In this document: in pieces, positions 6,103 through 32,429 of the stretch
Position numbering within the stretch: position 1 is the first letter of the stretch
Layout of the letters: each line of letters begins with the position of its first letter
Origin: a virus
Taxonomy: Duplodnaviria > Caudoviricetes
Reading direction: 5' to 3' (one strand)
Virus record (IMG/VR): IMGVR_UViG_3300027653_000038
Location: 1 to 32,622 of that record
DNA length: 32,622 nucleotides
The notes under the pieces: generated by a model
The model's input: only the letters and a program-made list of their open reading frames with translations
Databases searched by the model: none
What the model was told of the DNA's origin: nothing
Translations under genes and position numbers: made by a program

Positions 6103-6124
6103 TCCCCTTTATAATTTATTGCAT

Positions 6125-6151
6125 AAAAAAAAGACCTACATCAGTAAGTCT
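6125..6151 (-). terminator. Terminator-like hairpin before the major tail gene
   Basis: AGACTTAC-tgat-GTAGGTCT followed by a T run. Confidence 0.55.
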
Positions 6152-13182: not shown

Positions 13183-13206
13183 TTAAGATATCCTCCTTTT
13201 TGGCAT

Positions 13207-13238
13207 AAAAAAGACACCTACAATTAAGTAAGTGTCTT
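13207..13238 (-). terminator. Terminator-like hairpin between terS and terL
   Basis: AAGACACTTAC-ttaatt-GTAGGTGTCTT followed by TTTT. Confidence 0.7.
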
Positions 13239-29076: not shown

Positions 29077-29136
29077 TGTGGTCCTCCCTTTCCTCTCCCT
29101 CTCTGTTAGAATGTTGTTTAAGGGGAGGTGTTAAAT

Positions 29137-29397
29137 TTGAATAATATTGTATTTACTTTAGAATTCGATGATGATCCGGCTAATTCAAGAGCCAATTCTT
29201 ATTTAAAGAAGGGATGGACTCTATTACACGTCGGAACGAAACTTATTGATGTTTTAGACAATGGACAGGCTCTCTACAACACCACATATGTTGTAGGTGC
29301 TAATCAACAACAATATGATGATCATAAAAATGAATCGCCAGATGATGCTAATTTAGATGCACTTATTGCTAAATCTGAGAACGACGTCTCCAAATAG
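29137..29397 (+). CDS. Counter-oriented hypothetical protein (moron-like)
   Basis: GGGGAGGTG SD then TTG 29137. Extended -10 TGTTAGAAT at about 29104-29112. Confidence 0.75.
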   Translation: MNNIVFTLEFDDDPANSRANSYLKKGWTLLHVGTKLIDVLDNGQALYNTTYVVGANQQQYDDHKNESPDDANLDALIAKSENDVSK

Positions 29398-29572
29398 TCC
29401 TTTCAAAAAGTCCTTTATCCGCAAGATAGAGGGCTTTATTTACTTCTACATAACTCAGTCCACTTTTTAAGCTTAATTCCATTATTTTATCTAGAAGGCT
29501 GACCACTTCTTTAGGTTGATCTTCTGATAAAATATCTGTCGGCATTCCATCTGATAATTGAATTTTCTTCAT
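29369..29572 (-). CDS. Hypothetical protein
   Basis: Likely start MKKIQLSD at 29572 with GGGGAGG SD. Confidence 0.7.
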   Translation of the reverse strand: MKKIQLSDGMPTDILSEDQPKEVVSLLDKIMELSLKSGLSYVEVNKALYLADKGLFERTIWRRRSQI

Positions 29573-29581
29573 TATGAATCC

Positions 29582-29618
29582 TCCCCATCGATTGTCCCTA
29601 AAACGCGTATACCCACGC
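29582..29618. repeat. 37-bp direct repeat, copy 1
   Basis: TCCCCATCGATTGTCCCTAAAACGCGTATACCCACGC; 36/37 identical to 31186-31222. Confidence 0.97.
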
Positions 29619-29628
29619 ATTATTTTTA

Positions 29629-29844
29629 TTACCATTCAGCTGTAATTTCATCAATTGCCTCAAATGTAGGCTGAGCCAACCACCAACGCTTACGTCTTTT
29701 TCTACGTTCATGAATTCGTACTCGTGAATCACGTAATATTTCATCTTCCAAGTACCTGGCCGACATACACGTAATTTCTGTAAGTTTATTAATATCCACT
29801 AGCAATAATTGGTGATGAGTCTGTTTCTGTAATTCCTTTTGCAT
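29629..29844 (-). CDS. Excisionase-like winged-helix DNA-binding protein
   Basis: Small and basic (VDINKLTEITCMSARYLED...RKRRKRWW), second gene of the early operon. Function inferred. Confidence 0.6.
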   Translation of the reverse strand: MQKELQKQTHHQLLLVDINKLTEITCMSARYLEDEILRDSRVRIHERRKRRKRWWLAQPTFEAIDEITAEW

Positions 29845-29862
29845 AAGCTCTGTTCACCTACC

Positions 29863-30045
29863 TTAAATAGATAATATTTTTCGAATATGCTTGATGTGTT
29901 CTTGTGGTTTTGGTCCATCTTTTCGACCGTTTATAATGTCTGATAGATATACTGCTGAGATTCCAACTAATTTAGCTAATTCTTTTTGACTCATTTCTCG
30001 TTTAAATAACTCTGATCTAACCATCACTCCTAAGTCCTTTGACAT
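29863..30045 (-). CDS. Cro-like XRE HTH regulator
   Basis: MSQKELAKLVGISAVYLSDIINGRKDG. ATG 30045 has an AAAGGAG SD. Divergent from the repressor. Confidence 0.9.
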   Translation of the reverse strand: MSKDLGVMVRSELFKREMSQKELAKLVGISAVYLSDIINGRKDGPKPQEHIKHIRKILSI

Positions 30046-30107
30046 AAAAACTCTCCTTTCGAAAATGTATATATAAGCTAGATTATTAACTAATTTCCTA
30101 AAATACA

Positions 30108-30136
30108 TTGACCAGTAATGACTTTTATGCTAATAT
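30108..30136 (+). promoter_or_regulatory. Lysogenic promoter (repressor-immA-int)
   Basis: TTGACC-17 nt-TAATAT with an extended TG. The spacer contains an operator half-site AATGACTTTT. Confidence 0.65.
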
Positions 30137-30268
30137 CAAACCATAGCTAAATAAGACTTGTAAAAGCCTGTAACAATACATTCATCCGTTCCCCAACGCA
30201 TAAAATTGTATTTTGATAGGTCGTATTTTTTGTACTTATCTTTAGCTAATAAACTAGCTTATGAACAT

Positions 30269-30297
30269 AGTATAATGACTAAAAAGTCATTTGTCAA
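30269..30297 (-). promoter_or_regulatory. Lytic early promoter
   Basis: TTGACA-17 nt-TATACT on the minus strand, with the operator palindrome in the spacer. Confidence 0.85.
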
Positions 30298-30321
30298 TAC
30301 GTAAGTGACTTTTTAGTCATT
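30274..30321. promoter_or_regulatory. Two repressor operator palindromes
   Basis: AATGACT-aaaa-AGTCATT (30274-30291) and AGTGACT-tttt-AGTCATT (30304-30321). Confidence 0.8.
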
Positions 30322-30348
30322 ATGATGGTTTTATAAGCTCACGAAGGG

Positions 30349-30669
30349 TTGATTATAGTGGGTTTAATAGCAAGAATTAAGTTTCTTTGTGATAACAAAA
30401 AAGTAACTTTTGCAGAAGTAGAAAGAAAAATAGGGATTTCTAATGGACAAATTAGAAGGTGGGATAAAACTTCTCCCAATAGTGACACTCTAAAAAAAGT
30501 AGCCGACTACTTCAATGTATCTGTAGATTATCTACTAGGTCGTACAGATGATGAAGAAATACATACAATAGCAGCACATCATGATGGTGAGGATTGGACA
30601 GATGACGAACTAGAAGAAATTGAACGTTTCAAGGAGTTTGTGAGACTAAAAAGAAAACAACAGGAGTGA
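30349..30669 (+). CDS. CI/ImmR-like XRE repressor
   Basis: HTH with KVADYFNVSVDYLLGR and C-terminal TIAAHHDG..ELEEIERF. No peptidase domain. Start may be GTG 30358. Confidence 0.92.
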   Translation: MIIVGLIARIKFLCDNKKVTFAEVERKIGISNGQIRRWDKTSPNSDTLKKVADYFNVSVDYLLGRTDDEEIHTIAAHHDGEDWTDDELEEIERFKEFVRLKRKQQE

Positions 30670-30675
30670 TGCTAC

Positions 30676-31140
30676 TTGCGTTATGAATGTCTTTTGAACG
30701 AGGCTTATCAAAAAAATATAGACATCTATGAGGAGCCAATGAAATCTAGAATTAAAGGCCTATATGCGGATAATATAATTTGGATTAATAAAAACATTAG
30801 TACTTCCACAGAAAAGGCTGTTGTACTTGCTGAGGAACTTGGGCATTATCACACCACATCTGGAGACATACTGGATCAAACAAAAGTAGCGAATGTAAAA
30901 CAAGAAAAACTTGCTAGAAAATGGGCTGCAGAACGGCTAGTAACTCCAGCTAAATTAGTAGAAGCATTTGACTGTGGTTGTCGATCAAGGTTTGAAATTG
31001 CAGAAAAGTTAGAAGTGACAGAAGGTTTTTTATTAGAGAGTTTAAATTCTTATCGTGATAAATACGGTATTGAAATACAAGTAGATGAAGATCACACTTT
31101 GTTTTTAGATCCGTTAGCAGTATTTAAAGCAATTAAGTAA
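30676..31140 (+). CDS. ImmA/IrrE-family metallopeptidase (anti-repressor)
   Basis: IKGLY, LAEELGHY and KQEKLARKWA motifs, coupled to the repressor gene. Confidence 0.92.
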   Translation: MRYECLLNEAYQKNIDIYEEPMKSRIKGLYADNIIWINKNISTSTEKAVVLAEELGHYHTTSGDILDQTKVANVKQEKLARKWAAERLVTPAKLVEAFDCGCRSRFEIAEKLEVTEGFLLESLNSYRDKYGIEIQVDEDHTLFLDPLAVFKAIK

Positions 31141-31185
31141 TACATTATATTTAAGGAGGTGTTGCCTAGTGTATCTTTCCGGTTA

Positions 31186-31222
31186 TCCCCACCGATTGTC
31201 CCTAAAACGCGTATACCCACGC
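31186..31222. repeat. 37-bp direct repeat, copy 2 (integrase leader)
   Basis: TCCCCACCGATTGTCCCTAAAACGCGTATACCCACGC, ending 19 nt before the int ATG. Confidence 0.97.
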
Positions 31223-31241
31223 GATAGAAGGGTAGAGAAAG

Positions 31242-32429
31242 ATGAAGTTACACAATACGAAGGTTGATCACGATCTATACTATTACATCTTAAAAAGCGG
31301 TGAAAAGCGTTGGATGTACCGCCATAAATATTATGACAGATCTGGTAAGAGAAGAGAAAAGAAGAAAAGTGGCTTTAAAACGGAAAAAGCAGGCCTAAAG
31401 GCACTTTTAGAAGTAAAGTCCGCACTATTAAGTGGACATACTACGCAGATAGAACATGATCAAATGACTGTTTCTCAATGGTTGGATATTTGGTATGAAA
31501 CGAATGAGAGGTCCTGGGGAGTTAAAACGAAAAAGAATAGAAGGTCCCTTATTGATAATCACTACGATCCTTTATTAGGAAAGTACAAACTAAATGAATT
31601 AAGCAGAAACATCTATATAAGGGATTATATTAATGCGTTGTATAATATGGATCTAGCCCCCAGTTCAATTCAACAATATCATAATGTTTTTAAGGTTGCG
31701 ATTAACGCTGCCGTAGACGATGAAATAATTAGCAGAAACAGAATTAGAAAAGTCGTAATCGAACAAGATGATAAAAAAGACAACTTTTTAAATCCTGATG
31801 AATTAAATGCTTTTCTATCTTATGTGAAAAGTTATGGTAATATAACTAATTATACATTTGTTCTATTGCTAGCTTATTCCGGCCTTAGAAGTGGTGAAGG
31901 TGCTGGACTGAAATGGTCAAGCATCAATTTTAAGGAAGAAACAGTCACAGTAGAGTACACTAGAGACGGACATGGTTTAAGAAGGCCAAAAACAAAGAAC
32001 AGTAACCGAACAATAAAGATGGATAAAATAGTAATGAAGCAATTAAAAATATACCAAAAATGGTGTATTGAAACTAAGTTTTCTTATGGTAAACAACTAG
32101 ATAAGGAAAACGACTTTGTATTCATTTCACATCAAGGAGGAGAAGAAGTAAGTCATTATTATTTGGGACAATTTTTCGATAAATTTTATAAGAAAATTGA
32201 AGAAGATGATATTGACTTAAAAAGAATTACGCCACATGGTTTGCGCCACACACACGCTACAATATTGATTAGTTTATCTATTCCACCTAATGCAATAGCT
32301 GAACGCTTAGGTAATACAATAGAAATGATATATAAAATATATGCGCATTTCTATAAAGAATTAGAGACACAATCAGTAACTGTATTCGGTGAATTTCTAG
32401 CAAGTGGGGCTGATATTGGGGCTAAATAA
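31242..32429 (+). CDS. int: Tyrosine integrase
   Basis: Arm-binding N-terminus (KSGFKT), SGLRSGE, PKT, HGLRHTHAT and RLGN...IYAH motifs. Confidence 0.97.
   Translation: MKLHNTKVDHDLYYYILKSGEKRWMYRHKYYDRSGKRREKKKSGFKTEKAGLKALLEVKSALLSGHTTQIEHDQMTVSQWLDIWYETNERSWGVKTKKNRRSLIDNHYDPLLGKYKLNELSRNIYIRDYINALYNMDLAPSSIQQYHNVFKVAINAAVDDEIISRNRIRKVVIEQDDKKDNFLNPDELNAFLSYVKSYGNITNYTFVLLLAYSGLRSGEGAGLKWSSINFKEETVTVEYTRDGHGLRRPKTKNSNRTIKMDKIVMKQLKIYQKWCIETKFSYGKQLDKENDFVFISHQGGEEVSHYYLGQFFDKFYKKIEEDDIDLKRITPHGLRHTHATILISLSIPPNAIAERLGNTIEMIYKIYAHFYKELETQSVTVFGEFLASGADIGAK
32405..32423. repeat. Tandem TGGGGCT, probable integrase arm-type sites of the att region
   Basis: Copies at 32405 and 32417, at the 3' end of int. 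Confidence 0.55.

Follow-up and report, generated by a model that had tools for sequence, protein, structure and literature searches.

The analyzed stretch of DNA (hereafter the window) is the 32,622-nucleotide (nt) viral contig IMGVR_UViG_3300027653_000038 (Duplodnaviria; Caudoviricetes). Part of it is a Bacillales lysogeny module, in which a cro-like gene and a 71-amino-acid (aa) open reading frame (ORF) resembling an excisionase gene (xis) on the minus strand are accompanied by immR-like, immA-like, and tyrosine integrase (int) genes on the plus strand (Table 1). The closest integrases match that of the window at 68%, among them one from a Virgibacillus genome. An earlier note, made from the sequence alone, had pointed to a 37-base-pair (bp) repeat with one copy after the xis-like gene and the other in the int leader. 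A repeat search combined with the ORF map bore this out: the copies are identical at 36 of 37 positions, are in direct orientation, and are both intergenic. Exact repeats in the window reach 30 nt, compared with a maximum of 14–18 nt in 20 shuffled sequences. Copy 1 lies 10 nt past the stop of the xis-like ORF, and copy 2 occupies positions −56 to −19 relative to the int start codon. Their direct orientation makes the early mRNA antisense to the int leader. The two copies are a genuine complementary pair, conserved and co-evolving, through which the xis transcript is linked to an int leader predicted to occlude its own ribosome-binding site (RBS). Together they probably form a two-part RNA switch, with translation of the integrase (Int) activated in trans by the early xis transcript.

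Copy 1 is likely transcribed, because a minus-strand sigma-A-type promoter match (11 of 12 positions, by consensus only) at 30297–30269 faces cro, and the terminator scan found no minus-strand terminator between this match and copy 1. The same promoter is the likely source of a transcript carrying both xis and copy 1. Copy 1 also overlaps the Shine-Dalgarno (SD) sequence of the next early gene (start codon at 29572), a point absent from the earlier note; the tail of copy 1, which is complementary to the int anti-SD, contains part of this second SD.

Table 1. Features of the xis–int region (positions are those of the window; HTH, helix-turn-helix).
Feature	Position	Strand	Remarks
Next early gene	29369–29572	−	Weak phrog_640 match; SD at 29579–29586 overlaps copy 1
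Copy 1, antisense element of the early lytic transcript	29582–29618	−	A-rich linker, then predicted small hairpin with G-rich loop (29605–29618), then tail
Xis-like gene	29629–29844	−	71 aa here; MerR-type/winged helix predicted for the family; putative function
Cro-like HTH, first gene of the early operon	29863–30045	−	
Divergent switch region	30256–30339	.	Operator-like 37-nt inverted repeat and promoter match
ImmR-like repressor	30358–30669	+	
ImmA/IrrE-like metalloprotease	30676–31140	+	PF06114
Upstream strong SD-like element	31153–31161	+	Candidate STAB-SD or standby site; putative role
Predicted int leader structure	31172–31244	+	From folding
Copy 2, target in the int leader	31186–31222	+	Spans anti-SD and apical stem-loop; ends 6 nt before SD
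Tyrosine integrase	31242–32429	+	395 aa; arm-binding, SAM-like, and catalytic domains

Conservation was assessed among integrase relatives gathered from viral, genome, and metagenome collections, supplemented by a search with a xis alignment. For a blind test, 95 rows were reduced to 68 distinct leaders, that of the window included, with duplicates merged and 11 entries dropped (six distant integrases, one N-masked, one broken, and three with short flanks). Scanning 7 kilobases (kb) upstream at a score of at least 13 recovered a direct copy of the leader in 57 of the 68 and an inverted copy in none; one of the 57 (locus L083) is a chance AT-rich match. In a second test, xis was located independently with a hidden Markov model, which gave 88 distinct loci with both the integrase clade and a Xis-like gene, including the window's own contig and near-identical relatives. 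At a score of at least 10, 83 of these loci have a match to the leader no more than 50 nt after the xis stop; at a score of at least 12, 78 do. The copy starts 3–28 nt past the stop, after a linker that is 67% A, and this position is constant over xis–int distances ranging from 0.8 to 5.2 kb. In most relatives, the conserved core is an apical stem-loop of 13–16 nt, and the 37 nt of the window are the longest case seen. The exact repeat core of the window has no match in viral contigs, and what is conserved is the arrangement and the motif family only. A conserved terminator after copy 1 was considered and rejected, as a run of T residues is found in only 14 of the 83 loci.

Some loci are incomplete or duplicated. 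Xis-like genes with a post-stop hairpin occur at L123, L125, L126, L127, L276, and L277, where the cognate integrase was not found in the DNA examined (contig end, insertion sequence, or decayed prophage). At L009, L094, L083, and L045, an occluded leader stands with a weak or missing antisense copy or with no xis match, and these are candidates for locked or decayed prophages. One Bacillus contig contains the same prophage module twice, about 39 kb apart (L054 and L055).

A sister Xis family found with distant integrases comprises 33 loci, and the pair is absent from all 27 of those with an opposite-strand integrase (best score 8). At L265, a stretch resembling the Bacillales motif follows a sister-family xis, with no matching int leader. 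Among 19 named phages, the pair is present in six, namely Psychrobacillus phage Spoks (15/15 match), Staphylococcus sciuri phage phi575 (16/16, located 5 nt after the xis-like stop), Javan311 (25/27), MissG1 (28/31), phiNIH1.1 (15/15), and the satellite Javan568 (27/28); the last five have the same arrangement with unrelated sequence. It was not found in the stretches examined of the other 13 (SEsuP-1, TMW 1.706 P2, phi105, B13, BCJA1c, EH-TP1, phBC6A52, BVE2, phiCp-B, Javan623, Javan53, Bacillus phage 1, and Lj928). Javan623 and Javan53 (L467 and L469) have a phiNIH1.1-like leader, including the upstream SD, and no partner within the 7 kb examined.

Searching with the S. mitis-type motif returned 170 stretches, of which 80 include flanks; 27 distinct streptococcal-type viral loci have both an int leader and a second copy. 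The copies are in the same orientation in 25 loci and in opposite orientation in one. In 26 of the 27, the second copy lies on the RBS of a 93–96-aa Xis-like gene, the model of which resembles GIsul2 Xis (Z = 7.1) and Pukovnik Xis (Z = 6.9). At loci such as L308 and L313, a TATTATATCA-like stretch is found a few bases 5' of the antisense copy, suggesting that transcription of the Xis-like gene may begin at the hairpin. Sub-threshold Rfam matches to the S. pyogenes small RNA (sRNA) Spy779816 lie antisense, just 5' of the int leader, at L296:6826–6930 and L466:6825–6911 (−). The pair occurs in Bacillaceae, Paenibacillaceae, Caryophanaceae, one staphylococcal phage, and streptococcal phages.

The two copies change together. 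Among 42 disjoint pairs taken from a FastTree integrase tree, cognate pairing was better than swapped pairing in 26, worse in two, and tied in 14 (p = 3e-6), which is compensatory change between partners of the kind expected of a trans-activating riboregulator. Within the apical stem, changes on both sides number 27, compared with 11.6 in shuffles (0/500). In the lower stem (5' and SD arms), own-locus pairing is better than cross-locus pairing in 72 of 83 loci. The antisense tail beyond the identical core pairs better with its own leader in 60 of 80 loci, and among those with short matches this extension pairing is cognate-specific in 38 of 52 (p = 0.002), a bias that could also come from decayed duplication. 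Direct repeats flank xis-cro-immR-immA in the window, and their 36/37 identity points to a recent copying event in this lineage, as would be expected of a non-regulatory duplication, a recombination substrate, or an assembly artifact. Such an origin is nevertheless highly improbable in view of the fixed position, the co-change across the tree, the presence in isolated phages (Spoks and phi575), and the absence from the sister clade.

The int leader is predicted to be closed when folded alone (31141–31270). The SD bases at 31229–31232 (AGGG) pair with 31200–31203 (CCCT) at probabilities of 0.90–0.99, and positions 31237–31244, which include the start codon, pair with 31172–31179 at 0.8–0.99. 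An apical stem (31208–31212/31219–31223) with a C-rich loop (31213–31218) lies within the repeat. The earlier note had proposed that ATCTTTC (31173–31179) pairs over the start codon, which the prediction confirms (probability 0.98). It had also named TATCC and TACCC as anti-SD elements, and here the fold disagrees: these pair with the RBS region at probabilities of 0.001 and 0.000, respectively, TACCC forms the apical loop, and the predicted anti-SD is CCCT (probability 0.98). A shorter version of the leader is more stable than shuffled sequences (z = −2.4), and the 130-nt leader is not (z = −0.28). When the leader and the post-xis RNA are cofolded, they form a long duplex of −81 kcal/mol, compared with −27 and −9 kcal/mol for the parts, and the SD is left unpaired. 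In the leader L139:680–760, which precedes a 97%-identical integrase, the SD stem is better paired (z = −3.85), and the single mismatched position has the base of copy 1.

Similar folds are predicted for the relatives. The match ends at −16 to −21 in 74 of 83 loci, so that the SD is spared and the partner is complementary to the inhibitory arm and loop. The predicted energy needed to unpair positions −16 to +6 (the opening cost) has a median of 11.2 kcal/mol for the leader alone, 6.5 kcal/mol with the matched core occupied, and 2.3 kcal/mol with the extended duplex; in the window, it falls from 11.6 to 5.1 kcal/mol upon binding. For a comparison set of distant integrases (n = 17; lower-scoring integrases with no xis match), the median is 5.2 kcal/mol (p = 2e-5 against 11.2), which argues for an RBS occluded by a cis hairpin in the integrase clade. 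The pairing could conversely be real and silence int, by RNase III cleavage or added occlusion, and so block re-integration during lytic growth. The 37-bp duplex of the window could be an RNase III substrate, the match reaches −40 or further in 21 of 80 loci, and phage c4 RNAs are described as repressors (PMC12197685). However, the RBS is predicted to be closed already and the antisense leaves the SD uncovered, the match starts no further than −36 in 52 of 80 loci, and Int is needed for excision exactly when the early operon fires. Silencing is therefore an improbable outcome.

Pairing might also act chiefly in the reverse direction, or mutually, with the int leader RNA binding the early mRNA and blocking the SD in copy 1, which would tilt the balance toward Int over Xis for integration. 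The SD so blocked would be that of xis itself in the streptococcal phages, where the copy almost always lies on the Xis-like RBS, and that of the gene after xis in the window. Among Bacillales loci with a next-gene SD within 60 nt, this SD is inside the predicted duplex in 26 of 29. However, no such SD is nearby in 54 of 83 Bacillales loci, the downstream gene varies, and reverse control does not need the conserved int-occluding hairpin. As the main function, it is very unlikely; as a second effect, it is compatible with trans activation.

The protein encoded next to copy 1 is 89–90 aa in the relatives, and the version in the window lacks about 18 N-terminal residues. This 89–90-aa family has no sequence match in Pfam or PDB and no Pfam excisionase match, and Foldseek returned no significant name. 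Alignment of the two Xis-like families with each other is not significant (probability 2%). Its model, with a predicted local distance difference test (pLDDT) score of 87, resembles Pukovnik Xis (Z = 6.3, root-mean-square deviation 2.6, 53 aligned residues), TorI (Z = 6.0), and GIsul2 Xis (Z = 5.8). MerR regulators tie with excisionases in these fold matches, and the assignment to small MerR-type winged-helix proteins is by fold only. Look-alikes in the ESM Atlas include DUF771 at 0.88, which is a lead only. Based on the model, the gene likely encodes an excisionase.

This fold is that of DNA-binding MerR or winged helix-turn-helix proteins, and both copies could be DNA sites for the Xis-like protein, serving autoregulation and activation of an int promoter, with the direct orientation merely inherited. 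Excisionases that double as transcription regulators include Cox, Apl, AlpA, and RdfS. The core forms a short palindrome interrupted by a spacer, and the motif type broadly follows the Xis subfamily. A binding site for Xis should recur in the att arms; in a search for it, the core 11-mer (at most one mismatch) was found near the int-proximal att end in only 2 of 45 loci, and it is absent by the attP of Spoks. Motif and Xis identity are also decoupled in places, with different motifs in loci whose Xis proteins are 80–82% identical (L140 compared with L073, L047, and L142) and the same motif at 45% identity (L037 and L026). DNA binding further leaves unexplained the SD-covering hairpin, the extension toward the anti-SD, and the 25:1 orientation in streptococcal loci. 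It is an unlikely explanation for the pair.

Several observations weigh against activation in trans. Five of the 88 loci (L009, L094, L114, SEsuP-1, and TMW 1.706 P2) score below 10, although L114 reaches 9 with a single loop mismatch, and the loci are related, such that raw counts overstate their independence. The apical stem pairs well also when slid by +2 (81.5%; score 0.204 compared with 0.263), probably due to a second subfamily in the other register, and RNAalifold on the MAFFT alignment gave no consensus structure. The G-U asymmetry expected of RNA pairing is 23:16 in Bacillales (core 11:7, extension 12:9), which is not significant; this test did not discriminate and thereby leaves room for a Xis DNA site or for silencing. 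In streptococcal loci, the mismatch types lean toward wobble, with leader-U/antisense-G prevailing at 12:3 types, a ratio confounded by the SD within the antisense copy. The motif mostly tracks the Xis subfamily; of 1777 distant-Xis pairs, only 7 share an identical motif. RNA-library contigs over the relative L022 carry no strand, end, or level information and possibly represent DNA. Finally, masking paired bases reduces the opening energy partly by construction, and linkers of at least 9 nt are kept in many loci, which means that the lower stem need not open and that binding at the loop alone may weaken it without breaking it. Because of the masking effect and the long linkers, we infer activation rather than read it directly from the folds.

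Two further elements precede int. A strong SD-like element lies 60–110 nt before the int start codon in 42 of 83 loci and in 1 of 17 distant integrases. It resembles the STAB-SD, an SD-like sequence not used for translation initiation, which blocks RNase J1 (PMC4113751), and by analogy could protect silent int mRNA. A conserved upstream ORF (uORF) as the opener of the leader was rejected, since the element lacks a start codon in 32 of the 42 loci and frames are mixed. In the window, a GTG at 31169 lies 7 nt downstream of the element and begins a possible uORF of 32 codons (31169–31267, plus strand), which overlaps the int start out of frame and is not conserved. In addition, SOS-box-like sites precede int in 26 of 83 loci (1.7 expected from shuffles) and lie inside int in 8 of 83; none precedes int in the window. 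The Bacillus SOS-box consensus used is unconfirmed in the available part of PMC6182141. These sites stand 70–125 nt before the int start codon (for example in L063, L067, and L148), often just ahead of the upstream SD, and suggest a damage-inducible int promoter. Some distant integrases are also preceded by such sites.

A possible sequence of events under trans activation is as follows. In the lysogen, the immR-immA-int mRNA would be made with the int SD held in the hairpin. Upon induction, the cro-xis operon would fire, bringing the G-rich loop just past xis into contact with the C-rich apical loop of the int leader. Growth of the duplex (13–37 bp) in the direction of the anti-SD would then open the stem, such that Int would appear only together with Xis. 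The earlier note had likewise read the leader as repressed and released by pairing with the lytic transcript, and had proposed checking in related prophages whether the two sequences covary as a pair, differing between phages yet matched within each. Its reading is supported in these computational tests by recurrence in 83 of 88 loci, by the 26:2 ratio among independent pairs, and by a leader that is predicted to be closed by itself and to open once the early RNA is bound. A broader proposal is more tentative and somewhat less likely than not, namely that these pairs represent a widespread and undescribed type of natural toehold-like switch, found in Firmicutes prophages and satellites. The xis mRNA would license Int in trans, the int leader could block the RBS in the early copy, and the Int:Xis ratio would thereby be set; sequence types would insulate co-resident prophages, and where int has a LexA-box promoter (about a third of cases), excision would be under an AND gate.

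An int gene placed behind a repressor gene is usually assumed to be constitutively expressed, which leaves Xis as the sole switch. The element points to a further lock, acting on translation, by which the supply of Int would depend on the lytic transcript. This bears on the limitation of spontaneous excision in such prophages and on the timing of integration relative to excision. It also predicts compatible int and xis modules in mosaic phages and is a natural source of paired RNA activators for Gram-positive hosts.

Elsewhere in the window, a moron-like small gene on the plus strand (29128–29397; phrog_6634) with its own terminator-like sequence (29407–29437) lies inside the minus-strand early operon. 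The late region contains a 26-nt repeat with 85% identity (6115–6140 and 13197–13222), and the window has no tRNA gene.

At either copy, Rfam yielded no family at gathering level or as a weak match, and in seven related loci only sub-threshold or weak matches elsewhere and none to c4. A CRISPR-repeat or Racr origin was rejected, with no Rfam CRISPR match and no array. A literature search, with most subscription papers outside its reach, found no description of such RNA control of int and xis. Among known post-transcriptional controls, lambda pI and sib retroregulation set the Int:Xis ratio in cis, through RNase III and decay, on one transcript; unlike at sib, two divergent transcripts would pair in trans here. 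The int-alpA motif is a structured element upstream of phage integrases. The Lacto-int motif (Weinberg 2010, PMC2864571) is another, and the three alignment rows of it compared by eye differ in sequence and show no apparent antisense partner; no Rfam model is given for this motif in the table of that paper. The available text of the phi575 paper places the integrase of this phage closest to those of Bacillus and Lysinibacillus phages and is silent on the element (PMC5390265). In ICEBs1, int likewise lies behind immR-immA and xis in a divergent operon; the accessible part of a review describes int as constitutive, with xis alone switched, and does not mention an RNA link (PMC5812530).

Phage antisense RNAs offer a second comparison. 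The P4 CI RNA is one comparable example. In phages P1 and P7, c4 controls its target through complementary, presumably looped sequences at the RBS region (PMC12197685). However, c4 is a discrete sRNA that represses antirepressor synthesis, whereas an intergenic stretch of early mRNA, an int target, and predicted activation are found here; there is no Rfam match to c4, and the SD is left uncovered. Integrase and excision go unmentioned in the available text of the same 2025 review of phage sRNAs (PMC12197685). Closer in outcome is lambda PreS (LPR1), an RNA of the early left operon; it exposes an RBS and so activates translation (10.1101/2024.10.31.621285). PreS is described there as Hfq-dependent and acts on the host gene dnaN, whereas the target here is the phage's own int, with near-perfect and co-changing complementarity.

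In its predicted mode of action, the pair works like an anti-antisense activator, and a role for such an element in coupling Int to Xis appears to be undescribed. In DsrA-rpoS, RNAIII-hla, the engineered cis-repressed/trans-activating RNA (crRNA/taRNA) pairs, and toehold switches, an RNA acting in trans opens a cis hairpin over an RBS. Compared with these activators, the element described here is natural and internal to the phage, forms part of an mRNA, is tied to xis, and has diversified into many sequence types.

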